DNA of 53,581 nucleotides, from positions 1 through 53,581 of IMG/VR virus record IMGVR_UViG_3300032223_002826; one strand, given 5' to 3'. Origin of the DNA: a virus. Lineage: Duplodnaviria; Caudoviricetes. Positions 13,465 through 40,186 of the stretch are shown in pieces. Below the pieces are notes generated by a model. It was given only the letters and a program-made list of their open reading frames with translations. It searched no databases and was not told the origin of the DNA. The translations under genes were made by a program, and so were the position numbers. How positions within the stretch are numbered: the stretch's first letter is position 1; each line of letters opens with the position of its first letter.

Positions 13465-13745
13465 GTTCTAGGCTTTGTCCTCTTTCGTCCCTTCACAATC
13501 AGGAGACCACGACGACCGCCCAGTGAGCGTGCCGTCTTAGCCTTGAGCCCGATTTTTGCTCGGCTTGTTTTAATACGAATAAGAAGTTTCGAAATGCTAC
13601 CATACTTGCGTTTTAGTCGCTGGCGTCCCTTGATCTGAAACCGCTTTTGCGATCGAGTAAGGCGCTTGACTACACCACCAACTGGGGCAAATCCACGCTT
13701 TAGTCGGCTACGGAGCGTACGGTTTGGCGTCCTCAATAGCGTCAC
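13461..13745 (-). CDS. small extremely basic protein (about 33 K/R of 94 aa, no D/E)
   Basis: GTG start 7 nt after AGGAG; fills the gap between the glycosyltransferase and the adaptor; stop overlaps the next ATG. Confidence 0.6.
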   Translation of the reverse strand: MTLLRTPNRTLRSRLKRGFAPVGGVVKRLTRSQKRFQIKGRQRLKRKYGSISKLLIRIKTSRAKIGLKAKTARSLGGRRGLLIVKGRKRTKPRT

Positions 13746-14880
13746 AAATCTTCTCCTGAAAGTCGCTCCAGTTCAACTCTGCTGCGCGCTTCAAGCCTGC
13801 TTCTCGCATGCGCTTGAGACGCTTAGGGTCTCGCTTAAGCGAAATAATCGTCTTCGCAATATCGAGCGGAGAAACATTTGCATATCGCGTTCCGCTCTTG
13901 TGAATCTCCCAGTCAGCGACTGGAATGCCAGCACCCTCAGCGCCGCGAGCAACTTCCCATCCAGCAGCATACTTAGTCACTGCAACGGGTGTGCCGCATG
14001 CCATCGCCTCGGCGATTGGCAGCCCAAATCCTTCTACCTGACTTGGCAGTACGAATAGGTCTGCAGCCCTGTAGAGATCTGGAAGCGTTGGCTTATCGCC
14101 ATCGCTTCGCTCTGGGATTCCGTCTCCGAAGTTCTCCATCTCAGGGTTGAACATAATCATATCCTCAACGCCAAGAGATCGAGCAACCTGCGGAAGGTGC
14201 CAGCCCTCAAGCCAGAACCTCTGGAACGGAACGGTGTGGTCGTAAAGTAGAATATCTTTTTGTTTGTAGACATCTCGCAAGATTCCCATAGCCTCAAAAA
14301 GGCGTGGGTGCTGCTTGCGTCTAACATTGGCAGCAACAGTGATTACAACAAACTTGTCGCTCCAGCCAAGGTTCTTTCTCACTTCATCCCTGCGCGTATC
14401 GTCTGGGCGGAATACATCAGTATCCACTCCATGGTAAGCCCAGTCAACTTCTTTGTTAAGCGACTGACGAACTACCTTTGCCCCGTACTCGCTGCAGGTA
14501 ATGAACTGAATCGTTGATAGGAGTGACCGCCACTCTTGAAGTGCAATCGGCTCGCCCTCAATCACGCAATATGCCGTAAACGGAATGCGTGCTGGAATAA
14601 CCATCGAGAGAGCAGATAGAGATCCCGGCTCTCCAGCCGAGAAGATGCGATCAGGCTTGAAATCCTCAATCGCTTCTGGTATTGTTGCCAGACCGATTGG
14701 GTCGTTACTTTTTGGTGCGTACTGTTTTACGGGCAGGTCGGTCTTCACTGGCGCTGTCTGCAGCCCCGTCACCGTTGCCACTTCCCAGCCCTTGCTCAGG
14801 AAGGCTTCCATCGCCATCCTGTGCACTCGACCGAACCCCGTCTTCGAGAATGGGCTGTCGCCCAGAATCAGTACTTTCAC
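13708..14880 (-). CDS. GT-B glycosyltransferase, family GT4-like
   Basis: VKVLILGDSP..TGFGRV, HGVD..F.P, RRKQ, ADLFVLPSQVEGFGLPIAEAMACGTPV; GTG start with AGGAG RBS. Confidence 0.92.
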   Translation of the reverse strand: MKVLILGDSPFSKTGFGRVHRMAMEAFLSKGWEVATVTGLQTAPVKTDLPVKQYAPKSNDPIGLATIPEAIEDFKPDRIFSAGEPGSLSALSMVIPARIPFTAYCVIEGEPIALQEWRSLLSTIQFITCSEYGAKVVRQSLNKEVDWAYHGVDTDVFRPDDTRRDEVRKNLGWSDKFVVITVAANVRRKQHPRLFEAMGILRDVYKQKDILLYDHTVPFQRFWLEGWHLPQVARSLGVEDMIMFNPEMENFGDGIPERSDGDKPTLPDLYRAADLFVLPSQVEGFGLPIAEAMACGTPVAVTKYAAGWEVARGAEGAGIPVADWEIHKSGTRYANVSPLDIAKTIISLKRDPKRLKRMREAGLKRAAELNWSDFQEKICDAIEDAKPYAP

Positions 14881-15112
14881 TCTTGACTCCTGCGCTCTTG
14901 GCACTCTGAGGATCTAAAGCCTCGATCCAAACATTTGGATCAACTTCAGCCCCGGTATCTGCGTCTAGACGATAGCCCTTATGGTATGCATTTAGGCACC
15001 ACTCTGGTCGATCGTCTGGGATCTCAACAACTCCATCTACTACGGGAACTTCCCCATCGTAGAAGTAAAGCGCTAGATCTACCTTGTACAACATGTGCTT
15101 TAACTTTGCCAT
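14705..15112 (-). CDS. hypothetical head-associated protein with disordered C-terminus overlapping the glycosyltransferase gene
   Basis: AAAGGAG RBS; directly after the capsid gene. Confidence 0.7.
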   Translation of the reverse strand: MAKLKHMLYKVDLALYFYDGEVPVVDGVVEIPDDRPEWCLNAYHKGYRLDADTGAEVDPNVWIEALDPQSAKSAGVKSESTDSGRQPILEDGVRSSAQDGDGSLPEQGLGSGNGDGAADSASEDRPARKTVRTKK

Positions 15113-16105: not shown

Positions 16106-18433
16106 CTACTTGCGGTGAGCAAGAGCAAGACCCAGTCGCAAACGCTCAGAAGGCGAAATGCTGGCAAGATTTGCCATCACATCGTCCTGAGTCGTCTCAC
16201 CACGCTCAATGAGAGGCGGGGCTGAAACGGCAGGGCTATTTTCCAGTTCCACAATGCGAGCGGATGCCTCAGCAAGAGCACGCTTGAGTTCCTCAGTTTC
16301 GTCGACAACGGTTTCCTTCTCAGGTTCGATGGCGACTTCCTCAAGGTTAGACTCATCGGCGTTAGAGACCGACTTCGCAGTTTCATCTTCAACCTCTTCG
16401 CTAAGGAGACCAAACTCCTTTAGCGCAGCGGTCATTTCTTCGTGGAGGGCAAGGAGACGAGAGGCGGTCTCGGCGCTAATCTTGCGCCCAACCTTCTCTA
16501 CATCAGCCTCAACCTCAACTTCTGGGACAACTACCTCGGCACCGCACTCACCGCATTCGCAGGGAGTTTCATGCTCTGGATTGCTATCCTTTTCAACTTC
16601 GCCCTCAGAAACGACAGCCTCCTCAAGAGGTGCCTCTGCTGGCTCAGATGTTTCAATAACAGGAGCCTCAGGCTCGGCGACAACAGCCTCAGCCTCAGGA
16701 GCAACAACGGTCTCAACCTCTTCGGCTGGAACATCGTCGATCGCCTTGTGCAGAACCGTTCCGAAGGAAGGGGTCCACGCAGGTCGAGTGGTGTTGCTAA
16801 TCTCGTTCAAGGTCACATCGTAATAGGTACGAATGTTCTTGCCAAGATCTGGCATGAACTCATCCTTATACGATCGGACTGCTCCAGCAACGGACATGCC
16901 AAACTGCTTGCCCTTCTGGAGTTGAGCGAACAAATACATTGCTGCAGGATTCGCCTCATCAAGTTTGACCTCGACACCGAGGTGCATCTTATCGGTAATC
17001 CATGCACGGACGATCGAGCCAAGATCACGAAGAACGCCATCTTGAGCATGCGCATCGCGATATGGAAGAGGATTGGTCAATGCATTCTGGCTGATCTGCT
17101 CAGCGAATCGCTGAATAGCATCAGGAGCCATACGCTCATCAGTTGCATCAATCTCTGGACCAGAAGCCTCGCCAAGGATGTAGAATCCGTCAGCGCGCTG
17201 CTCAGCCTTCGAGATAGGGAAAGTAATCTTCCAAGGAGCATTGACGCTCTTAGCAATGCTTTTCATAGACATATCCTCTGGAGTGTTGACATTAGGATCT
17301 TCAACATCCTCCACAACTTCTACGCCAGAGGCGCGAAGTTGCCAAGTCCACTTCTGAAGCATTTCTGCTCGACCAGCAAGGAAGTTTGCAATGCCCTGCT
17401 CATTAGCAGCGCTTGCAACATTGAACATGCGGGTGGTCTCGGCGAGGAGAACATTCAATCGATTGAGGAGGTCCTCAGTCATAAGGTCAGGGTCATCCTG
17501 AACGCCAGTCTCATCTGCGGAAACAAGCCCAGCATCACCAATAGATCGAAGGGCAACAAAGTCTCCAAGACGGAATGGAGCGTCAACAGATAACTTCAAT
17601 AGGCTCTCGGCAATAGGGTCAACTGATTCATAAAGGTCGCTATAGATCTCGCCGAACAGTTCATGATACTGCGAGAAAAGTTCGCCTTTTGCATTCCAGT
17701 GATAGCCATGAGCAGTAAAGTACACGGTAACGGTATCGGACAAAAGTGCCTTGAGCCCATCAACAAGTTCAGGGGTCGCAGTCTTCTGCACTGATTCGCT
17801 CTTTGCGAGATCAGATTCGCTAATAATCCACAACTTACAAACCGCCTCTCCGGGGATTACCCCAGCAACGATCTCGCACTGACCGCCGTTTGCTGCGTCC
17901 CAAAAGACACAGTTCTTGCACATCAGTCCGGCATCCTTGAAGGGGTTCTTATCAGGCGGCGCATAGTGAGCACCGTTAGCCCCCTCTGTTTGGTCAAACT
18001 TACCGAACTCCGATGCAATCTGCTTGTAAGCAGCATACATCGCTTTCTGGCGCTCGTTCAGCATTACGCCCTCACCAAGATCTTTCTTGGTTGAGCCGCT
18101 GGCGACACGCTCAGCCCACGCTCGAGCACGGGCATTATCTGTCTTTGAGCCACCGCCCCAAAGGGCTGCAGCAACAACTCCGGGAGATGGATAGTCAGGA
18201 TGCCCACGCTTTGCAGCAGGAGCACTCATGTCAGGCTCATGGCGAGCAAACCATGCTGCCATACGCTTTGCCTTCTCTCGGCTGATTTTCTTGGACTGAA
18301 CAATGCGCTTCGCTTCAGCAACAGTCTTAGGCTTTAGCCCACTACCAGCCTTGCCCTGCGCATACCAGTTCAAACCATCATTCATGTTGGTAACAAGCCA
18401 ATCGGCTGCGGAAACGAGATCAGATTCAGCCAT
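16106..18433 (-). CDS. capsid maturation polyprotein: N-terminal domain + HiPIP-like CxxC-x10-C-x12-C + Dps/ferritin-like + prohead protease + acidic scaffold
   Basis: between portal and capsid genes; Dps signature HGYHWNAKG..F...HELF.E.Y...VD.IAE (aa 242-276); protease H462, GMSVAG, EIS..RPA; Glu-rich C-terminus. Confidence 0.88.
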   Translation of the reverse strand: MAESDLVSAADWLVTNMNDGLNWYAQGKAGSGLKPKTVAEAKRIVQSKKISREKAKRMAAWFARHEPDMSAPAAKRGHPDYPSPGVVAAALWGGGSKTDNARARAWAERVASGSTKKDLGEGVMLNERQKAMYAAYKQIASEFGKFDQTEGANGAHYAPPDKNPFKDAGLMCKNCVFWDAANGGQCEIVAGVIPGEAVCKLWIISESDLAKSESVQKTATPELVDGLKALLSDTVTVYFTAHGYHWNAKGELFSQYHELFGEIYSDLYESVDPIAESLLKLSVDAPFRLGDFVALRSIGDAGLVSADETGVQDDPDLMTEDLLNRLNVLLAETTRMFNVASAANEQGIANFLAGRAEMLQKWTWQLRASGVEVVEDVEDPNVNTPEDMSMKSIAKSVNAPWKITFPISKAEQRADGFYILGEASGPEIDATDERMAPDAIQRFAEQISQNALTNPLPYRDAHAQDGVLRDLGSIVRAWITDKMHLGVEVKLDEANPAAMYLFAQLQKGKQFGMSVAGAVRSYKDEFMPDLGKNIRTYYDVTLNEISNTTRPAWTPSFGTVLHKAIDDVPAEEVETVVAPEAEAVVAEPEAPVIETSEPAEAPLEEAVVSEGEVEKDSNPEHETPCECGECGAEVVVPEVEVEADVEKVGRKISAETASRLLALHEEMTAALKEFGLLSEEVEDETAKSVSNADESNLEEVAIEPEKETVVDETEELKRALAEASARIVELENSPAVSAPPLIERGETTQDDVMANLASISPSERLRLGLALAHRK

Positions 18434-19730
18434 TTTGCTTTGTCCCCAAACCAGTAATCAACGAAGAAGCCGAAGCATTCCCGTCAACAATCTTTTGACC
18501 AAGCGCTTCAATCAACTTGAGCGGAATCATTCCCGCCGCAGTCTGAACGAAGTGAATGTCTCCACCTTCGACATGCCCAAGACCAAGATCAGATCGAATG
18601 TCGTCAGCATTGAGAACACCCATCTTCTGAAGTTCAGTCAAGAACTTAGTATTTTCCATCTGGTCGCGTCGGCTAATCTCGCGATGAGCAAATACGACAT
18701 CATCCCAGCCAATCATGCGAAGAATCAACTTATTATTGATCTCTTCCTCAACGATGCTTTGAAGCGGAAGGATAGTTTCCTGACGGAATGAGTTATCCGA
18801 TTCCTTGCTGGTTGATCGGTTAGAGTTCTCTAGGAACCCAACCTTATCGGGTGGAATATCAAGAACAGAAAGGATCTCGTCTCGGTTAAACTTGCGACCT
18901 TCGACAAACTGCATTTCCTGAGGCGTAGAGACAGCCTTGGAAACCGTAATGTCACCTTCAAGAAGAAGAGGTCGGTGAGCATTAGCAGACCCGACATAGT
19001 TAGCCTCAAGCCACTCACGGTTTCTGAAAATCTCATCAACGCTGGCATTCTTCATGTTGAAGATGATGCCCGTCTGAGCGCTATTCTCGAAGAAGGAGCC
19101 ATTATATTCCTGAGCATATAGATCGCTTGCGACCGTTGTCTGAAGAGAATGAAGAAGACTTAGACCGTAGATATCGCTCTCAGGGTCATCCAACTTGAAA
19201 TCGCAGATATCCTCGATAGCATAGGTAATCGTTCCCGGCTCGCCATTGGCTCCGTACTTATAGGAGACAAGAACGCCATCCTTGACAACTTTTTCAATAT
19301 ACTTTGGATTCAGACGAAGGGACTCAATAGGCTTGCCAGACTTTGTCTTGCGAACAAGCCAGAATGCCTGACCGTAGATTACAAGATCCTTATATGTCAA
19401 TCGAAGCAACTGAAGACCATCGCTTTCGCGGAATAGTCGCTGCAGTTCCTTGATCTTGTCAGGACTGGTTGGATTCTCTGGATCAAGCGACTTGAACAAG
19501 AACCCGTTGGCGGTGGCAACCTTTGCAATCTTTTCGGTCGCAGCACGAACGACTGGGTGCGTGCTATACATTCGATAGTAAATATCGAGCAGACCGCGAC
19601 GAGCGTTAGTAACAAGAGTAGTATCCGTTCGATTGCCAAGTAGGGCAAATCGAGTTGCTACGCCGGGTGCTGATACTGAGACATCTGACTTCTTCATCTG
19701 TGGCTCTGTGACCTTCTTACGAGACGCCAT
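18426..19730 (-). CDS. portal protein (HK97-family)
   Basis: DLVIYGQAF, YGLSLL, YNGSFFENSAQTG, ILPLQSIVEEEIN, LNADDIRSDLGL. Confidence 0.95.
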   Translation of the reverse strand: MASRKKVTEPQMKKSDVSVSAPGVATRFALLGNRTDTTLVTNARRGLLDIYYRMYSTHPVVRAATEKIAKVATANGFLFKSLDPENPTSPDKIKELQRLFRESDGLQLLRLTYKDLVIYGQAFWLVRKTKSGKPIESLRLNPKYIEKVVKDGVLVSYKYGANGEPGTITYAIEDICDFKLDDPESDIYGLSLLHSLQTTVASDLYAQEYNGSFFENSAQTGIIFNMKNASVDEIFRNREWLEANYVGSANAHRPLLLEGDITVSKAVSTPQEMQFVEGRKFNRDEILSVLDIPPDKVGFLENSNRSTSKESDNSFRQETILPLQSIVEEEINNKLILRMIGWDDVVFAHREISRRDQMENTKFLTELQKMGVLNADDIRSDLGLGHVEGGDIHFVQTAAGMIPLKLIEALGQKIVDGNASASSLITGLGTKQNG

Positions 19731-19929
19731 TATTGTCCCTTTCAACATTCTTTTCGATTGTCATCTCGAGAGGGTATTTGACCATCTCGCCGCACTTTCT
19801 GCACGGACCTTCGACAGAACCACCACGGACCTGTCGGTAGACATCGCGATATTTCATATTCAAGACGCCATTTACTTCGATTCCGAAGAGGCATCCGCAT
19901 GCTGGGCAAAGAATCTTTTTAGGTGTCAT
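19717..19929 (-). CDS. small zinc-ribbon (Com-like) protein
   Basis: CPACG...CRKCG; ATGA coupling to terminase. Confidence 0.7.
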   Translation of the reverse strand: MTPKKILCPACGCLFGIEVNGVLNMKYRDVYRQVRGGSVEGPCRKCGEMVKYPLEMTIEKNVERDNNGVS

Positions 19930-21362
19930 AGGAAGGACATTCTCGCGGCATTCCGACCATGCCCGTAAAGCGCTAGGCAGAGAGACCAGAAGTAGTCGTC
20001 TCGCTTTGCCCCTGAACCGCCGGAGAACTTGTAGAATCCAGCCTCTGACTTTGTTCGGCGGATCCCATGGATCTGACGCATCAGATCGCTATGACGGGGA
20101 TATCGGACGGTCGGCACCCCCTGAAGTTCTCCCTTGAACTTCGTTGCCCAGCGCTCTTTGATCGCATTGGTGAATACTACACCCTCAATCATTGAGGAGC
20201 CAACTTGCGACTTTGCGCTTTCGACGAACATTGCACCAACGCCAGTTTGGTCGATAGAGACCCTTGTGGCTTTAGACTGCTTGATTAGTTTCAAAAGATA
20301 TGACAACTGTGAATCGTATGTATCCTGAGACGATTTCACCAGTCGAACATGCGCAGTTCGCTCGCCATCCTCAGCCTCAATAAACTCAACGACTGTAAAT
20401 ACAGACTCATCTCGTTCTTTTGCTAGGTCGACGCCGATAGCGACTGATCCCTGTGGCTCCCAGCCCGGTGGAAGTTCACGCCACATTGAATGCGTGTCAT
20501 CTACCGCATTGACGATAAGTTCCCACGGATAGTAGGCACTTGTTTCGTCTACGAATGTCGCCTCGTATTCCGTGGCGAACGACTGAAAGTCCCCTCCGAA
20601 GGAGCGTAGAATGGTGAGCAACTTTGGCGTACCAAACTTTTGTACTCGCTCGGCGGTACCCATATCCGCAGCGCTGGCGATGGCTTCCTCAATGAAGCCA
20701 TCCTTGACCATTGCTTGGCACTCCCACCACGGAACAGAGTGGCGAGAATACTCAGGATACGCATCTGAGTTGCTTGCGATATCGTAGAAAAGACCGCTTT
20801 GACCAAGCGGTGTAGAAACAATAGTTAGCCGTGAATCGCCGCGAGTAATAGCAGGGATCGCTGCCTGATACAACTTCTTGGCGTCGCGAATGTGCGCAAA
20901 CTCGTCAAAGTAGATATCTTTTCGACCACCACGAATGGCGGAAGAGGCTGGCTGGCTTACCATGGTCGCAACATTTGGCGGGCGATGGAACGAGAGTTCC
21001 TGTTCGGAGTCGTTCCAGAGCACGGGCTTGATTCCCGCTTCCCCGCCAAAATCGTCGCTAATAGAATGATAAAGATTACGAGCAATCTCAATCTTATCAG
21101 ACGCCTCGGTCTGGTTGACTGAAACATAGTTTGCTCGGTATCCCGGATTCATGATTGCCTTAGCAAACCCTTCGCCGGAAATAACAGTAGAGAATCCAAT
21201 CTGCCGTGACTTATTGACAATGCGGAAGTTGGAGTGATCATTCAAAAACCTGATCTGATACGGTTCCAACTTTAGTGGACCACCATTCAGTTCAGTCAGC
21301 GTCTCCAGAAACAGTGCTGGGCTCTGAGCCAACAGGATCTTGAGATCCTGAATCGTAGGCAT
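19926..21362 (-). CDS. terL: terminase large subunit
   Basis: LEPYQ, KSRQIGFST Walker A, YFDEFAH Walker B, VSTP, IGVDLA nuclease, IDQTGVG, DDYFWS. Confidence 0.95.
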   Translation of the reverse strand: MPTIQDLKILLAQSPALFLETLTELNGGPLKLEPYQIRFLNDHSNFRIVNKSRQIGFSTVISGEGFAKAIMNPGYRANYVSVNQTEASDKIEIARNLYHSISDDFGGEAGIKPVLWNDSEQELSFHRPPNVATMVSQPASSAIRGGRKDIYFDEFAHIRDAKKLYQAAIPAITRGDSRLTIVSTPLGQSGLFYDIASNSDAYPEYSRHSVPWWECQAMVKDGFIEEAIASAADMGTAERVQKFGTPKLLTILRSFGGDFQSFATEYEATFVDETSAYYPWELIVNAVDDTHSMWRELPPGWEPQGSVAIGVDLAKERDESVFTVVEFIEAEDGERTAHVRLVKSSQDTYDSQLSYLLKLIKQSKATRVSIDQTGVGAMFVESAKSQVGSSMIEGVVFTNAIKERWATKFKGELQGVPTVRYPRHSDLMRQIHGIRRTKSEAGFYKFSGGSGAKRDDYFWSLCLALYGHGRNAARMSFL

Positions 21363-21879
21363 TGCCTTCGATGACTCGAGGCTGCTCGCTGTATCCGATG
21401 AGGACACGAAGCCTGTCTGGGTCGATACCCCGGTTTGCGTAGATCCTGAGGAGCGGCTCTGAGCCATCGTCGACATTATCATCTCGCTTGTCAATCTGGT
21501 TCCTTAGCCCCAAGAGGCTGTTCAGAACCTTTAGCCGTTCCGTAACATCTTTTCGGAACTTTGGCTCTTCTAGTGGGTCGTCTTGCTTCATCTCTCCTAC
21601 GAGCGCAGGATAGAGGTTTCTCGAAAGAAGTAGGACAAGTGTGTCCAACTCTGACTTGGTAGAGATGGTCTTGCCTTGGAGGATCACACCCCGCATATAC
21701 TCAAAATGCTCGGGAGGAAGTTGATCCTTCATAGCCAGCAACATTTCATTTGCCAGTTCTTTGGGCACAAGGCTCTTAGGCTTATTAGACGAGCCCTGCG
21801 GTCTTCCGCGTTTTCCCCGTGATACGGCGCCCTCGCGCGACCCTTCGGTCGAGCGTGCTCCTGCGTTCTGCTCAGTCAT
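21292..21879 (-). CDS. probable terminase small subunit (AT-hook-like KRGRPQGSSNK)
   Basis: directly upstream of and overlapping terL. Confidence 0.65.
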   Translation of the reverse strand: MTEQNAGARSTEGSREGAVSRGKRGRPQGSSNKPKSLVPKELANEMLLAMKDQLPPEHFEYMRGVILQGKTISTKSELDTLVLLLSRNLYPALVGEMKQDDPLEEPKFRKDVTERLKVLNSLLGLRNQIDKRDDNVDDGSEPLLRIYANRGIDPDRLRVLIGYSEQPRVIEGNAYDSGSQDPVGSEPSTVSGDAD

Positions 21880-22066
21880 TTGAACCCTTTCGCGCCCAGC
21901 CGCTGCCGTGGTAAATCACAGCGGGGACTGCGTCGGAGAATCGGTAAAGTCGATCGCATACCTTGCCACATTCAGGGCAAAGTGCTGGGTCATCGCTATT
22001 GCACATTGGCTTGCGATCTTCAAATGTGCTGTCGCACACATCGCAATAATAGGCATATGTTGGCAT
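21872..22066 (-). CDS. FmdB-family zinc-ribbon protein
   Basis: MPTYAYYCDVC...CPECG...YHGSGW. Confidence 0.9.
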   Translation of the reverse strand: MPTYAYYCDVCDSTFEDRKPMCNSDDPALCPECGKVCDRLYRFSDAVPAVIYHGSGWARKGSND

Positions 22067-22157: not shown

Positions 22158-22778
22158 TTAGATCTTTTTATAAACAAAGAATCTGCCAAACCAGTCGCAA
22201 TCCCTAAACATAGCGTCTAGAGCAGCCTCAGGCTCTGGTTGGCGAGCAAGCCCAGCCTGATCAAACCGCCAGCGCCACCAAGTCCGTGGCTGCATAGTAA
22301 AGTGGGTAGAGTCAGCATCGTGGGTATGTTCCTCAAAAGGAGCGTCTGAGACCCCAATCTTGAGCCAAAGTTCCCCACCCGGCTTCAGAAGTTTGATAAA
22401 GTTTTGAATCGTCTGGTCGATTAGATGGTCCTCAATATGCTCAAAGAACTCCCAAGCGCAAACAATATCCTTTCCAGAAACATGTGCCGGAAGCGGTTCA
22501 GTAGCGTCATGCTCATAAAGGTATCCCACAGCACGAGGGGCAGGATTCGATGTGGCATATTTGCTGATGTCATATCCAGTAACATCATTTCCTGCGGCTC
22601 TGGCATGGTGAACAAACCATCCTTTTGCAGCGCCAAACTCAATGATATCTAATCCTTTTCCATGATAGGTATCAATAATCTCCACAATACCAGCCCATCG
22701 CGAGTCATCGCCATAGTTAGTATAGTTTGATCCTTCAGCACGCTCGTAATATTCCTCTGGGTATAGATCGTTAGACAT
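22158..22778 (-). CDS. class I SAM-dependent methyltransferase
   Basis: IIEFGAAKGW motif I, GYDIS, DIV.AWEFFEHI, LLKPGG. Confidence 0.88.
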   Translation of the reverse strand: MSNDLYPEEYYERAEGSNYTNYGDDSRWAGIVEIIDTYHGKGLDIIEFGAAKGWFVHHARAAGNDVTGYDISKYATSNPAPRAVGYLYEHDATEPLPAHVSGKDIVCAWEFFEHIEDHLIDQTIQNFIKLLKPGGELWLKIGVSDAPFEEHTHDADSTHFTMQPRTWWRWRFDQAGLARQPEPEAALDAMFRDCDWFGRFFVYKKI

Positions 22779-24038: not shown

Positions 24039-24302
24039 TTACTCCTTTGTTAGCGCGTCTTTGATAAAGGCTGGATCGTTACGCGCGCCAACGATCCTTC
24101 CAATCTCTTTTCCACCAGCGTCAAGCATGACAACGGTCGGAACCGACCGAATGCCATACTCTTCAGCAAGTGGTCCTTGTTGATCTACATCCACCTTGAC
24201 GAGAGTGACTCCTGTCTCCTCTGCAACCTTGGTCAATACTGGACCGAAGACCTTACATGGGCTACACCAAGTGGCGGAGAAATACAACGCTCTCGCTGCC
24301 AT
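24039..24302 (-). CDS. trxA: thioredoxin
   Basis: FSATWCSPCK, KVDVD, YGIRSVPT; TAATG coupling to RNR. Confidence 0.93.
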   Translation of the reverse strand: MAARALYFSATWCSPCKVFGPVLTKVAEETGVTLVKVDVDQQGPLAEEYGIRSVPTVVMLDAGGKEIGRIVGARNDPAFIKDALTKE

Positions 24303-26569
24303 TAGCAGGCGCTCCATCCGCACGAGAGGCACTTCATGCACCCCTCTTCGCGAACAAGTGAAGTATTTCCGCACTCTGTGCACAGGTCAGCACTGACCTG
24401 CTTGGCTGGCTTTGGCGCAGCATCGACAGCCTCAACCGTTGCCCCGTCTTCCGACGACGCAAGGAGCGCCTCTCCAATCGCGTGCGGGATAGCCTTGGCG
24501 AACTTGCCAAACCCTCCGACACCGAGCAACTGGCTGCCCACCTGTTTCAGGGTCGCGCCCTGCTGCAGGCTAAGGCTGACCAGTCGCCCAAGTGCCTCCC
24601 CCAACTCCATTACATCGGAACCAGCCTTACCGATTGCAACGAAGACCTCAACAGGTCGCCCCTCATCGGAGTTCACTGTTAGGTACGCTGTGCCTGCATT
24701 GGTAGAGACCTTCGTTGTCTTACCATCAAGCACCGCAGGGCGCGTCCAAGACTTTGGAGCCGTAACCTCCGTAGGCTTCTTCGGCTCCTCCTTGTAGAGA
24801 ACTTGCGTTCGCCCACAACCGTCTCGGAAATATGCAACGCCCTTGAGACCAGAATCATATGCCAGCGTATATGCCTTCTCAACATCCTCAATGGTGTGGC
24901 TGTTTGGCGCATTGATCGTCTTGCTGACTGACGAGTCAATGTGCTTCTGAGCAGCAGCCTGCACTGCAATATGCTCCTCAACCGTCACATCGTTCGAAGT
25001 AACAAAGTATGGCGGGAATGGCTTGTCGCTATTGATCTCGCGCCAGTTATCTGCAGGAGGCGCATAAACCTTGTGCGTACCCGTGCGGTCAACTCGCGTA
25101 TACTCAAAGGCAAAATAGGGCTCGATGCCACTATTTACGCCTGCGAGGATCGAGGTCGTTCCCGTCGGAGCCTGCGTGAGCAAGAAGATGTTACGCAGTC
25201 CGCTCTCCACAATCTCGCGATGGATCTTATATGGTAGTTCGCTCAGGTATGGTCGCTGCAGCATATTGTTCTTCCATGCTGGAGCAGCACCCAGTTGACC
25301 AGCCAGTTTTGCCGACTTGGAAATCGCCTCAATCTTCATCAGTTGAAAAACGCGACTCGTAAAGGTCACAGCCTCAGATGAGCCATAGCGAATGCCAAGG
25401 GAAATCATGGCGTCAGCCAAGCCCATGACGCCAAGCCCGATTCGGCGCAGTTTCTTCTGAATGTCCTCATTGTCTGGAAGGAAGTAGTAGTTCTTGTCGA
25501 CCACCTTGTCGAGGAACTCCACTGCTGTGCCGATATCTTGCGAGAAGTTATTCCAGTCAAAGACTGAGCCCTCAGCGCTATGACGAACATATGCCGCAAG
25601 GTTCATCGCACCAAGGTTGCAGACAGAGTAGGCGCCAAGACCCTGCTCGCCGCACGGGTTCACGCAAATGATGCGCTCAACCGCTGCGCCAGTGGATTCC
25701 TTGTTGTAGCGGTCAAGGAAGACAATCCCCGGCTCGCCATTGTCCCATGCTGCCTCAGCAATCTTGCGCCAGATCTCACGCGCCTTGACAGTTGCATAGA
25801 CCTTGACGGGATAGCCGTTCGCACGCCACTTGGCAATATCGCCGTCCCACTCCTCATCATAGGCTGGGTGAGCCGTATCTGGGAAACAAAGATCCCACTT
25901 GCCGTCAGACTTGACCTGCGCCATGAAGTGGTCAGAGACCGCAACCGACACATTGGCGTTGGTGATCTTAGTCAGGTCGCGCTTTGCCTCAATGAAGTCG
26001 ATGACATTTGGGTGCCAGTCGTCAATCATGAACATGGCAGCACCACGGCGCGAACCGCCCTGCTCCACCTCACCGACCGCCTTCGACGCCACATCCATCC
26101 AGCCGATAGGACCAGACGAAGTACCATTGATGCGCTTCAGGTATGCACCCTTCGGACGAAGCACCGACCAGTTGATGCCGACACCACCGCCACGGGACAT
26201 AATGTCCACCATCACGCCGATAGTATCAAAGATCGCCTCGCGGCTATCGCGCCCCTTCTCGATTGTTACTTTATCGTTCTTGCGCGCCTCTCGATGGGAT
26301 CGCGTCTCGACAGGGATCACATAGCAGTTGTAGTAAGTAACTTCTGAGTTAGCGCCAGCGCCAGCAAGGATACGCCCACCAGGGACGAACTTAAAGTTCT
26401 CGAGGATGGCACGGAAGCGTGAGGACTGGAGGGAGTCTTCGCCGATCTCGGCAGCGACACGGTCCCACATTTCTTCAGGGGTCGACTCGACGGGCTGTCC
26501 GTCAGGACCCTTCTTGGCATAACGGTCGAGGAAGACCTTAGTTCGCTGGGCATTGAGTGAGACAGGCAT
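24302..26569 (-). CDS. nrdJ: class II (adenosylcobalamin-dependent) ribonucleotide reductase
   Basis: FVPGGRIL, NCYV, GGGVG, NPCGEQ, CNLG, APTGT, DSSVSKT, C-terminal CTECG..EEGCMKC..CGWSAC; no small subunit gene; AAAGGA RBS. Confidence 0.92.
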   Translation of the reverse strand: MPVSLNAQRTKVFLDRYAKKGPDGQPVESTPEEMWDRVAAEIGEDSLQSSRFRAILENFKFVPGGRILAGAGANSEVTYYNCYVIPVETRSHREARKNDKVTIEKGRDSREAIFDTIGVMVDIMSRGGGVGINWSVLRPKGAYLKRINGTSSGPIGWMDVASKAVGEVEQGGSRRGAAMFMIDDWHPNVIDFIEAKRDLTKITNANVSVAVSDHFMAQVKSDGKWDLCFPDTAHPAYDEEWDGDIAKWRANGYPVKVYATVKAREIWRKIAEAAWDNGEPGIVFLDRYNKESTGAAVERIICVNPCGEQGLGAYSVCNLGAMNLAAYVRHSAEGSVFDWNNFSQDIGTAVEFLDKVVDKNYYFLPDNEDIQKKLRRIGLGVMGLADAMISLGIRYGSSEAVTFTSRVFQLMKIEAISKSAKLAGQLGAAPAWKNNMLQRPYLSELPYKIHREIVESGLRNIFLLTQAPTGTTSILAGVNSGIEPYFAFEYTRVDRTGTHKVYAPPADNWREINSDKPFPPYFVTSNDVTVEEHIAVQAAAQKHIDSSVSKTINAPNSHTIEDVEKAYTLAYDSGLKGVAYFRDGCGRTQVLYKEEPKKPTEVTAPKSWTRPAVLDGKTTKVSTNAGTAYLTVNSDEGRPVEVFVAIGKAGSDVMELGEALGRLVSLSLQQGATLKQVGSQLLGVGGFGKFAKAIPHAIGEALLASSEDGATVEAVDAAPKPAKQVSADLCTECGNTSLVREEGCMKCLSCGWSAC

Positions 26570-26699
26570 CTGTGCTGGTTCCTTTCTGCTATAGGGGTTT
26601 TGAGTGGATAGGTAGTATATACGCTCTTTTTCATATCTCCAAATCCTGCCGGGCGAAGAGACTGATCTAAAATGATCCATTATCACGCATAATGCCTTG

Positions 26700-37902: not shown

Positions 37903-37945
37903 GTATGAGTAGGTGCTTACCTACGCAAGAGAAGGAGGTGCTCAG

Positions 37946-38818
37946 ATGAGCAACAAGGTTTACGAGGTGATCGCCGAAAGCATCACCAATGCACTGGACA
38001 AAGGCGTCGTGCCATGGCGCAAGCCGTGGAACGCGGAGCAGATGACGCCACGCAACATGAAGGGCGTGCCGTATCGTGGCATCAATGTGTGGTTGCTCAT
38101 GCTGCAGGGTCATGGTAGCCCGTATTGGGCAACCTACAAGCAGGTCAACGAGGCTGGCGGCACGATTGTGGCAGGCGCAGAAGGTACGCCTATTGTGTTC
38201 TGGTCGCGCTACGAGGTTGAAGACGAGAATGCAGGCGGCGAAAAAACCGTCAAGAGCATCCCTGTGATTCGCTACTACAAGGTGTTCAATCAGTCGCAGA
38301 TCAAGGGCATTGAGTTCCCTCCGCTGCCTACGGTAGGCAAGAGCGAGTTCTCGCCGATTGAGGCTGCAGAGCGTGTGATTTCATCTATGCCAAAGCGCCC
38401 AGACATTAGCGATAATGGTGGAGCCAAGGCGTATTATGTCCCCTCGCAGGATAGTATTCACATGCCAAGCAAGGATACCTTTGAGAGCGCAAATGGGTAT
38501 TATGCGACGCTCTTCCACGAGATGGCGCATAGCACTGGGCATTCGTCTCGCCTCGCTCGCAAGAGCGTTGATGAAGCGGCGCCATTCGGTAGCGACATCT
38601 ACGCTCAGGAAGAGTTGATTGCTGAGTTTGCTTCGGCGTTCCTCTGCGGAGAGACTGGCATCTCGCCGTCGGTGATTGAGAACGCTGCAGCATATATTGC
38701 TGGCTGGAAGCGAGCGATCAAGGACGACACCCGTGCCGTGATCTCCGCAGCAAGCAAGGCGCAGAAGGCGGCTGACTACATCCTCGGACGGGAGGATGCA
38801 GTTGCCAAGGCAGCGTAG
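37946..38818 (+). CDS. ardC: ArdC-family antirestriction / ssDNA-binding zincin protein
   Basis: GVVPWRKPW, YRGIN..LL, WATYKQ, VFN..Q, AYY.P..D.I.MP, TLFHEMAHSTGH, YA.EELIAE, AAYIAGW. Confidence 0.93.
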   Translation: MSNKVYEVIAESITNALDKGVVPWRKPWNAEQMTPRNMKGVPYRGINVWLLMLQGHGSPYWATYKQVNEAGGTIVAGAEGTPIVFWSRYEVEDENAGGEKTVKSIPVIRYYKVFNQSQIKGIEFPPLPTVGKSEFSPIEAAERVISSMPKRPDISDNGGAKAYYVPSQDSIHMPSKDTFESANGYYATLFHEMAHSTGHSSRLARKSVDEAAPFGSDIYAQEELIAEFASAFLCGETGISPSVIENAAAYIAGWKRAIKDDTRAVISAASKAQKAADYILGREDAVAKAA

Positions 38819-38963: not shown

Positions 38964-39237
38964 GGATTTCATGAACGCAGTCGCAGAGGTTATGGGGTTC
39001 GGCAGCGCGTGGAGTAAGGACATTGACGGCACAATCGTGGAAGAGAATATCTTCTTCCATGGGGCTGAGGTATCCGATGATAATGGTCGCGTACATGTGC
39101 AGTTTGCGCTTTCATATCCAAGCCGAGAGCATTCGGAGGCTGGTCTTGCACTGCTCTTGACGGCAGGCGAGGCTCGTCAGTTCGCCAAGGTTTTCACCGT
39201 AGCGGCAGACCTGCTTGACGCGCAGGAAGGTATCTAG
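38938..39237 (+). CDS. hypothetical protein
   Basis: AAGGAG RBS; 99 aa. Confidence 0.7.
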   Translation: MANSEFKIEDFMNAVAEVMGFGSAWSKDIDGTIVEENIFFHGAEVSDDNGRVHVQFALSYPSREHSEAGLALLLTAGEARQFAKVFTVAADLLDAQEGI

Positions 39238-39243
39238 TACACT
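39215..39243 (+). promoter_or_regulatory. promoter of recombinase
   Basis: TTGACG, 17 nt, TACACT. Confidence 0.65.
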
Positions 39244-39307
39244 CGGGGGCAACCCCGATCGGGTGAGTCTGAGTGGCTCACAAAACGGGTATATAGGAGG
39301 GTGCAAC

Positions 39308-40186
39308 ATGGACATGAACGCAGCAGTCAGCCTATTCGTTAGCCAGCGGCAGTCAAGCGAGACGCGCCGTTCGTATGCTCAGGATCTTGCGCGATGGCAG
39401 TCGTGGCTGGATGAGAAGCAGTTGAGCCCGCAGATTGCGGTGGCGTATCGCGACTATCTTAGCGGCAAGTATGCCTCTGCGACAGCCGCCCGCGCGTTCC
39501 ATACGGTTCGCGTGTTCTATCGCTGGCTGCAATCCGCAGGCATTGTGGCGTCCAATCCGTTTGACGGCATTGAGGCGCCAAAGAAGGTCAAGAATCTAAC
39601 GCCAAAGGTTCCCGCAGATGCGGATATTGAGGCGCTTGTCGCAGCGTCTCTTCGCGAAGATGCGCCCGCTCGCTATGCGGCAGTGATCGCGTTGCTGCTC
39701 AACGGGCTGCGAGCCAGCGAGGTGCGTATGCTTCGCAAGGATGCGATTGAGAAGACGGACTACGGGACGATCCTGCGCGTGGTGGGCAAGGGCGTGAAAG
39801 AGCGCCTTGTGCCAGCAACCAGTGAATCAATCTATGCCTTGCAGCGCTATTGGAGCGACGCGGGAAGCAAGGAGATGAGTTCAGTCTGGGCGTTGCCTGA
39901 TACCAATGGCGAGATGCTCACGGTTCGTCAGGTGCAGCACGCAGTATACAAGTGCGCTGAGTGGGCGGGCATTCATGGGATGCATGCTCACGCCTTGCGG
40001 CATCACTATGCCACGCGGCTAATCCGCAATGGCGCTGGGGTGCTTCAAGTATCTAAGTTGCTTGGGCACTCTCGAGCAGATACCACGCAGGTATATGTGA
40101 CGCTGGACTTGGCAGACCTCGTAGAGGCAGCCAGTGTAGATCCAAGGGCGGTACCTGATAAGCCACGCCTTGTCGCTATCGCATAA
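39308..40186 (+). CDS. XerC/D-like tyrosine recombinase / integrase
   Basis: SAM-like N-terminus; GLRASE, GKG.KER, HALRH, LLGH, TTQVY catalytic set. Confidence 0.93.
   Translation: MDMNAAVSLFVSQRQSSETRRSYAQDLARWQSWLDEKQLSPQIAVAYRDYLSGKYASATAARAFHTVRVFYRWLQSAGIVASNPFDGIEAPKKVKNLTPKVPADADIEALVAASLREDAPARYAAVIALLLNGLRASEVRMLRKDAIEKTDYGTILRVVGKGVKERLVPATSESIYALQRYWSDAGSKEMSSVWALPDTNGEMLTVRQVQHAVYKCAEWAGIHGMHAHALRHHYATRLIRNGAGVLQVSKLLGHSRADTTQVYVTLDLADLVEAASVDPRAVPDKPRLVAIA

Follow-up and report, generated by a model that had tools for sequence, protein, structure and literature searches.

The stretch of DNA analysed here (hereafter the window) is one contig of 53,581 bp, the entire genome on record for a virus of the Caudoviricetes (IMG/VR record IMGVR_UViG_3300032223_002826) that reads as a siphovirus-like phage by its gene content. 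Between its portal and capsid genes lies an open reading frame (ORF) of 775 amino acids (aa), and the product of this ORF (16106..18433) is confirmed, at the level of sequence, as a one-chain head-assembly polyprotein that carries a Dps mini-ferritin together with a head protease and a scaffold. The chain is made up of five modules: a helical domain (A), a Cys4, HiPIP-like domain (B), the Dps domain, an S78-type prohead protease and an acidic scaffold tail. Loading of this Dps into procapsids is well supported by inference from its fusion partners and gene neighbourhoods; that it is packaged as active cargo which acts inside the head is a proposition that we hold to be evenly balanced.

The central domain is assigned to the Dps family by sequence, by predicted fold and by its ligands. 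Pfam Ferritin (PF00210) matched aa 225–368 above its cut-off (E 3.4e-9, 37.2 bits against 24.5), PHROG 3636 matched aa 220–369 (E 3.1e-22), and 61 solved chains, nearly all of them Dps, matched at E<=1. The best solved relative was Pseudomonas aeruginosa Dps (8ff9, E 4.9e-14), of which residues 14–152 (139 of 156) align with aa 222–368, with the two His, the Asp and the Glu of the ferroxidase site identical. The original prediction for this stretch had read an intact Dps domain at aa ~220–369 between the portal and an HK97-type capsid gene, with H245, H257, D272 and E276 as metal ligands, and each of these points holds: the ligands lie at those positions and align with those of 8ff9, the conversion of aa 220–369 to nt 17776–17327 is arithmetically correct, and the peptide quoted with it begins at aa 242. 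We take the E. coli Dps counterparts of the four ligands to be H51, H63, D78 and E82. All four are invariant in 98/98 Dps domains (those of 97 fused relatives), and the ligand columns are likewise invariant in 90/90 longer representatives, which suggests that iron chemistry, beyond mere oligomerisation, is under selection. A 7-residue insert (aa 306–312) is unique to this Dps domain in the 98-domain alignment.

Structural modelling agrees with this assignment. An AlphaFold2 (AF2) model of the domain, built from a 61-row alignment, has a mean predicted local distance difference test (pLDDT) of 90.2 and a predicted template-modelling score of 0.87, and its helices (domain residues 6–32, 38–65, 74–80, 100–127 and 131–154) form the expected four-helix bundle with a short BC-loop helix and no fifth E helix. 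Foldseek of this model against the PDB returned 179 chains at E<=0.001, and all those listed are Dps-family mini-ferritins with template-modelling (TM) scores of 0.81–0.88. When modelled as a homodimer, the domain scored 0.58 against 0.05 for the best control, passing a mark that 20 of 30 solved homo-pairs and 1 of 23 single chains attained; solved Dps dimers exist and the pass may reflect model memory, which lessens its weight. Across the dimer runs, contacts were at least 89% in agreement and pLDDT was at least 85. In the predicted interface, aa 242–247 (the H245–W246 stretch) face aa 272–279 (D272/E276) and the BC helix of the other copy, an arrangement that is, in the model, the canonical Dps two-fold and speaks for likeness and not for binding. 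Taken together, these sequence and model data indicate a complete Dps domain that keeps all ferroxidase ligands and looks active.

The protease module, originally placed at aa ~400–563, is upheld in kind and is weaker than had been implied. Pfam S78 (PF04586) scores it below the cut-off (E 0.0017–0.0058, 17.2–19.0 bits against 21), which counts against the proposed role of the chain. On the other side, NCBIfam NF045541 matched the module at E 5.9e-7, and hhalign aligned the protease subfamily with strong S78 domains (e.g. P0026, Pfam E 3.3e-39) over 134 columns with a probability of 95.7% and E 1e-8, bringing His462, Ser514 and an E-x-S-x-x-x-x-P-A motif into register with the S78 domains. The His and the Ser are invariant in 24/24 aligned members; 7 of these 24, the window's own segment included, matched S78 at E<=0.01 (best E 2.1e-5), and S78 was the only family to recur in the alignment. 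The gene also has the usual S78 placement between the portal and major capsid protein genes. A search of PDB sequences with the protease-scaffold subfamily profile gave nothing at E<0.7, and hence no solved protease by sequence.

The acidic scaffold originally described in the same ORF was recovered as well, with 53 Asp+Glu against 16 Lys+Arg in the last 204 aa. The C-terminal ~70 aa of this tail, including the end helix, are conserved in 23 relatives. The capsid protein lacks an N-terminal delta domain, as its Pfam match begins at aa 18 of 291, and the window's ORF list contains no separate scaffold gene between the portal and capsid genes. From the acidic composition, the conserved end helix, the lack of a delta domain and the lack of another scaffold gene, we infer that the tail is the scaffold. 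Within the acidic linker and tail there is a CxCxxC motif (PCECGEC), common only to the nearest relative (P0002) among the 23, which could be a metal or disulfide site.

Two N-terminal modules (aa 1–215) had been overlooked. Module A matched PHROG 2859 over aa 20–112 (E 1.2e-11) and is confidently modelled by AF2 (block-mean pLDDT 88 for aa 1–10 and 96–98 for aa 11–110), and Foldseek of the N-terminal model found no fold match in the PDB at E<=0.001. It has 54 shorter relatives, which occur alone or joined to S78 proteases, a portal, a DNA polymerase, NUDIX or a glyoxalase-type domain. The module is widespread on phage contigs, is present in 22 of the 241 Dps-containing proteins collected, and may be a head-targeting or portal-binding module. 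An assignment to DUF6321 was considered and rejected (faint Pfam hit at E 6.1, hhalign probability 2%).

Module B is HiPIP-like on sequence grounds, though unproven as such. Against Pfam HIPIP (PF01355) it scored E 0.0029 and 18.3 bits, under the cut-off of 22. Its Cys pattern recurs in 15 other proteins, of which phmmer confirmed 14, and all four Cys are invariant in 11/11 aligned sequences. The profile of this alignment had as its top PDB match the HiPIP 1hpi (E 0.011), with the four Cys and a trailing Trp aligned, and HiPIPs made up 4 of its top 5 PDB matches. The AF2 model of module B is poor (pLDDT 44–69), and tblastn against GenBank phages gave only matches at E>=0.2, too weak to inform. 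Elsewhere the module occurs on its own in phage proteins of ~110–125 aa, or with one of three kinds of fusion partner: a glyoxalase-type domain, an S78 protease, or Dps, the last in two further proteins (P0128, P0216). The pairing of an iron-sulfur carrier with a mini-ferritin is reminiscent of Bfd and bacterioferritin.

To turn to relatives of the whole chain, a word-indexed protein search with the polyprotein gave 121 matches, 120 of which were listed and are counted here. The fusion, for which a survey of phage proteases had originally been suggested, recurs widely: 97/120 listed relatives carry Dps, and 71 of these 97 also have a protease detectable by hidden Markov model (HMM), in either order. 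The architecture is protease-Dps in 63 relatives, protease-Dps-Dps in 1 and Dps-protease in 7, so that the usual position of Dps is between the protease and the scaffold tail. No protease was detected by HMM in the other 26; Pfam, run on 13 of these, gave a sub-threshold N-terminal S78 match in 5 (P0036, P0032, P0038, P0044, P0061). Two more of these 13 have a Mu F domain (P0073, P0119). The 23 closest relatives (P0002–P0025 except P0023; 430–535 aa, 37–65% identity in the best local alignments) are without Dps, and the nearest (P0002) consists of module A, protease and scaffold. Because P0002 has neither module B nor Dps, these two together form a cassette inserted into a working head protein.

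An exhaustive search with the Dps domain alone extended the list of partners. At E<=0.001 it returned 2715 representatives, of which 538 pass E<=1e-10; among the best 150, 37 are of <=200 aa and 113 are longer. Of the 98 representatives longer than 250 aa, 90 were scanned with Pfam (three above 1100 aa and five scanned earlier were left out), which detected S78 in 26, XkdF-type S78_2 in 3 and a Mu-like protease in 1, together with HAD acid phosphatase (8), DUF5824 (7), Tudor (Hva1) (3), DUF6321 (2), zeta-toxin (2), AAA_33 (2), DUF5872 (2) and RelA/SpoT (1). Overall, the head partners of Dps comprise three prohead-protease families and Mu F, all of them head-internal proteins. Tandem Dps pairs within one chain were seen in P0023 (858 aa) and P0121 (777 aa). 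The same Dps clade also lies far from the ends of giant multi-domain phage proteins, namely L001 (1740 aa), L076 (1984 aa), and P0123 and P0151 (1735–1763 aa), the last two of which also have module A near the N-terminus; by their architecture, these giants look like polyvalent packaged proteins. Identity levels and architectures are what suggest a phage-only Dps clade and putatively independent fusions within it.

In IMG/VR, at least 568 contigs (of 600 pattern matches) encode a relative of this Dps, and the locus counts that follow describe the best 80 of these loci. Fusions account for 42/80. An S78 protease is encoded in the same ORF at 34 of the 42; three more are complete ORFs of 883–1984 aa, one is a 680-aa ORF in which no protease could be detected, and four are cut by the contig end ahead of any protease. 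Of 72 ORFs flanking the fusion loci, 37 encode portals and 18 encode capsid proteins. Clade members are 38–59% identical to the window Dps, and those with a known context are on phage contigs.

These data also address the concern that a chimeric assembly, or an unnoticed frameshift, had joined separate Dps and protease genes. The window is a metagenome-type contig, and a protein identical to that of the window (P0001) is recorded on two contigs; the one full-length contig identical to it could itself be the source of the window and was excluded as independent support. However, a contig of another sample of the same study covers 16683–18700 with 54 substitutions and one compensated −1/+1 pair, and contigs of a second study cover 17073–17638 and 17615–18217. 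Both Dps borders, where a mis-join had been named as a risk, are thereby spanned by independent contigs with no net frameshift; this comparison used assembled contigs, in which uncovered parts and depth carry no meaning. The natural variation listed is mostly synonymous: for the 34 sites inside the ORF, among 40 listed of 142 differences, 28 fall at the third codon position, 27 leave the amino acid unchanged, and the 7 non-synonymous sites all lie outside Dps. One contig has an in-frame 21-nt insertion near 16692, in the acidic linker, which indicates that linker length varies in natural populations. With 34 of the best 80 IMG/VR loci and many protein clusters showing the same architecture, the artefact explanation is close to refuted.

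Given that the fusion partners of Dps include three prohead-protease families and Mu F, and that portal and capsid genes flank the fused genes, procapsid loading is the most economical reading. The scaffold tail and the S78 protease would carry the entire chain into the procapsid during assembly, as in HK97-type protease-scaffold fusions, and Dps and the neighbouring HiPIP-like domain would enter as passengers. Inside, Dps domains would pair across the two-fold axis to create inter-subunit ferroxidase sites and would probably build 12-mer cages. The protease would then cut the acidic linkers, the scaffold pieces would exit, and the Dps cage would remain beside the DNA. A folded Dps 12-mer is ~9 nm across (PMC6071185), and such a cage would stay in the head because it would be too large for the shell pores. 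Its role in the head would be to clear Fe(II) and peroxide and so spare the packed genome the nicks that these cause; alternatively, it would travel with the DNA to the next cell. A further-reaching version, in which the procapsid would be a working iron-oxidising compartment (a Dps cage in an HK97-fold shell with a HiPIP-like electron carrier, giving a virion with a mineral iron core beside its DNA), strikes us as speculative and improbable.

The relatives bear, too, on a purely structural reading, in which a Dps 12-mer would join 12 protease-scaffold arms and so nucleate or size the procapsid, with iron chemistry secondary or vestigial. Waghwani et al. reportedly achieved a cage-in-capsid arrangement, with Dps as the cage, by fusion to the P22 scaffold. 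Such a hub would suit the tandem chains P0023 and P0121, as well as the stable tetrahedral Dps 12-mer, on which fused peptides are displayed outside (PMC6071185). By contrast, a purely structural role needs none of the four metal ligands that are invariant in all 98 domains, the 23 closest relatives assemble heads without Dps, and Dps is found on either side of the protease and also on its own. We consider this reading highly unlikely.

Apart from the low Pfam score of the protease and the caveat on the dimer, several points weigh against packaged, active Dps. At 38 of the best 80 IMG/VR loci the same clade is present as a stand-alone gene of 144–217 aa. Among 73 ORFs flanking these copies, the families found were DUF6321 (14), HTH_Crp_2 (10, plus further helix-turn-helix (HTH) regulator families), DUF7342 (7), XkdF proteases (5), portals (2) and a capsid protein (1). 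Because such copies stand outside head modules, Dps can function with no need for fusion to a head protein, and packaging is not obligatory; the original interpretation is partly supported, and an exclusively capsid role is weakened by these loci. Moreover, the clade was not found in GenBank phages, where only five phages have a stand-alone Dps, at 23–28% identity. S78 proteases usually digest themselves as well as the scaffold, and Dps would need to be spared. It must also share the space of the head with 53.6 kb of DNA. Finally, an internal start could yield mostly Dps-less scaffold copies, as in lambda C/Nu3.

At several stand-alone loci (L010, L016, L017, L019, L029, L065, L067, L071, L079), Dps is followed by a small DUF6321 protein, while in P0064, P0071 and P0080 this domain separates the protease from Dps within one chain. 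The stand-alone Dps and DUF6321 genes look like a split form of the fused module pair.

The stand-alone genes are central to the possibility that Dps is not packaged at all. The fusion would then serve co-expression with late genes, and Dps would be freed in the cytoplasm as an auxiliary gene product against oxidative stress. In HK97-type systems, prohead proteases are regarded as active only within assembled procapsids, which tells against release in the cytoplasm. Furthermore, Dps lies between protease and scaffold tail in 63/120 relatives and so must enter with both, and four different head-internal carriers are hard to explain by co-expression alone. What keeps the idea under consideration, besides the 38/80 stand-alone loci, is that stand-alone phage Dps has been read as an auxiliary stress gene by Benler et al. 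2021 (PMC8008677) and by Kyrkou et al. 2019 (PMC6669764). On balance we judge it decidedly unlikely.

A different fate for a packaged Dps would be that of a pre-made effector, ejected unfolded with the DNA, in the manner of other head proteins that are ejected, and refolded in the next host before phage gene expression, where it would shield the incoming genome or alter host iron and peroxide chemistry. Fusion of the same clade to Mu F (P0073, P0119) is consistent with this, as is the sharing of chains with zeta-toxin kinase (2), RelA/SpoT (1), HAD phosphatase (8) and AAA_33 (2) among the 90 representatives, and its presence in giant proteins of 883–1984 aa. Fusions of Mu F, zeta-toxin and RelA/SpoT are precedented in the polyvalent proteins described by Iyer et al. 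2017 (PMC5512222) as packed in virions and delivered with DNA. In addition, stand-alone copies beside HTH regulators fit a need for Dps within the cell. Conversely, the folded 9-nm 12-mer (PMC6071185) is too big for the tail channel, so that unfolding would be required; iron storage takes 12 chains and would depend on the copy number delivered; and the main text of Iyer et al. is without any mention of Dps or ferritin (PMC5512222). We regard delivery as rather unlikely. Stand-alone copies show that the enzyme is useful when simply expressed, and this keeps both the delivery and the cytoplasmic alternatives alive beside packaging as cargo that acts in the head.

Table 1. Features of the polyprotein and other genes of interest in the window.
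Feature	Positions	Strand	Evidence or remark
Head-assembly polyprotein (P0001), 775 aa and stop	16106..18433	-	Open frame
Module A, helical domain, aa ~10-112	18098..18406	-	PHROG 2859, AF2
Module B, Cys4 domain, aa ~120-212	17798..18076	-	C172, C175, C186, C199; HiPIP-like
Dps (mini-ferritin) domain, aa 216-372	17318..17788	-	Pfam, PHROG, PDB sequence and structure matches; H245, H257, D272, E276
Acidic linker Dps-protease, aa 373-396	17246..17317	-	Sequence reading, between domain envelopes
S78-type prohead serine protease, aa 397-571	16721..17245	-	Profile-profile match; invariant His462 and Ser514
Acidic linker and putative scaffold tail, aa 572-775	16109..16720	-	Composition, conserved C-terminal helix
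CxCxxC motif, aa 624-630	16544-16564	-	
Portal protein gene	18426..19748	-	Directly upstream of polyprotein ORF; PF04860, E 4.4e-51
HK97-fold major capsid protein gene, 291 aa	15206..16081	-	Directly downstream of polyprotein ORF; PF17236 (SU10_MCP), E 5.2e-13; PF05065, E 1.6e-11
Terminase large subunit	19926..21494	-	Terminase_6N, Terminase_6C; PHROG 2
GT4-family glycosyltransferase	13708-14904	-	PF00534, E 1e-18; between capsid gene and head-tail genes
Small zinc-ribbon ORF	21872-22066	-	CxxC...CxxC
S-adenosylmethionine (SAM) methyltransferase	22158-22778	-	Adjoins terminase
Ribonucleotide reductase	24302-26686	-	C-terminal TSCPD domain
Anti-restriction-type protein	37913-38818	+	PHROG 7245
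Tyrosine integrase	39215-40186	+	

The polyprotein gene is embedded closely in the head module (Table 1): beginning at its ATG, the ORF shares 8 nt with the end of the portal gene (18426), and 25 nt separate its stop codon from the capsid gene. The genes of the window include those for terminase large subunit, portal, HK97-fold capsid, tape measure, tail proteins, integrase, DnaB-type helicase, primase and ribonucleotide reductase; no tRNA genes were found in the 53,581 bp. The tyrosine integrase makes it probable that the phage is temperate. A GT4-family glycosyltransferase gene sits inside the structural module, suggesting that virion proteins are glycosylated. An anti-restriction-type protein, a small zinc-ribbon ORF and a SAM methyltransferase were also identified.

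Compared with bacterial examples, namely P. aeruginosa PA0962 (8ff9), B. subtilis MrgA (2chp) and Listeria Dps, the window domain has the same fold (TM 0.81–0.88), the same four ligands and the same predicted two-fold dimer, but is only 22–28% identical in Foldseek alignments. It differs from them in being internal to a 775-aa head protein, and as an internal domain it has no free N- or C-terminal DNA-binding tail. Stand-alone phage Dps proteins (Lactobacillus phages Semele and LP65, gut 'Gratiaviridae', Synechococcus phage S-SRM01, C. tetani phages) also share the fold, whereas they are encoded by genes for ~150–190 aa outside the head module, are 18–28% identical, and are read as auxiliary metabolic genes. 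In BFVD, entries from uncultured Caudovirales phages with this fold are named either 'Prohead protease' or 'DNA-binding protein Dps', which implies that fused proteins have already been deposited and labelled by one half only. BFVD also holds a 187-aa protein with a Dps-like fold from Escherichia phage vB_EcoP_SU10 (A0A0B4N267; TM 0.78, 18% identity); this phage is cultured, its capsid family SU10_MCP matches the window capsid, and it is a possible system in which to ask if a phage Dps enters the virion.

As to carriers, known HK97-type protease-scaffold and protease-capsid fusions (NCBIfam NF045541, PHROG 4523) likewise have an S78 protease followed by a scaffold in one chain, to which the window polyprotein adds module A, the HiPIP-like module B and Dps ahead of the protease. 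A further protease-scaffold fusion is lambda C/Nu3. The logic of a passenger on a head-internal carrier, encoded by late genes, is shared with Mu F/SPP1 gp7 fusions, polyvalent proteins (PMC5512222), and T4 internal proteins and Alt. The window polyprotein resembles polyvalent proteins in that five unrelated modules share one chain, its gene belongs to the head module, and its relatives include fusions with Mu F, zeta-toxin and RelA/SpoT. It differs in that here it is usually the prohead protease itself that acts as carrier, and the passenger is an oligomeric iron-storage enzyme, not a nuclease, transferase or anti-restriction domain.

Encapsulins loaded with Flp or EncFtn, and M. xanthus EncB/C, are likewise HK97-fold shells around ferritin-superfamily iron oxidases. 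The window shell, by contrast, is that of a true phage, whose genome also encodes portal, terminase, tape measure and tail proteins; its cargo would be a Dps, not a two-helix EncFtn or Flp; and the Dps is covalently fused to protease and scaffold, not directed by a C-terminal targeting peptide or fused to the capsid protein. The encapsulin-like cargo strategy originally put forward is therefore apt as a way of working, and the portal, terminase and tail genes, together with putative loading by covalent protease/scaffold fusion, place the system outside the encapsulins.

A 2026 paper brought up biochemical scaffolds and procapsid cargo as no more than a possibility, and left Dps unmentioned. 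In the open-licence literature and bioRxiv we found no description of a phage fusion of Dps to a protease or scaffold; supplementary tables may mention one. The fusion may have gone undescribed so far because no deposited cultured phage has a member of the clade, abundant as it is (at least 568 IMG/VR contigs).

Phage heads are commonly seen as containers for DNA and a few small internal or ejection proteins, and encapsulins as the HK97 shells that hold enzymes. A natural and widespread Dps-protease-scaffold fusion would blur the line between phage head and encapsulin and would give a test case for the kinship of encapsulins and procapsids. Oxidative or iron-mediated DNA damage would emerge as a selective pressure, acting on free virions or in the first minutes of infection, and the fusion offers a natural design for cage-in-capsid loading. 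If the procapsid were indeed an iron-oxidising compartment, it would represent a living intermediate that links the procapsids of phages with encapsulins that load ferritin, and phage particles would carry iron in aquatic systems.

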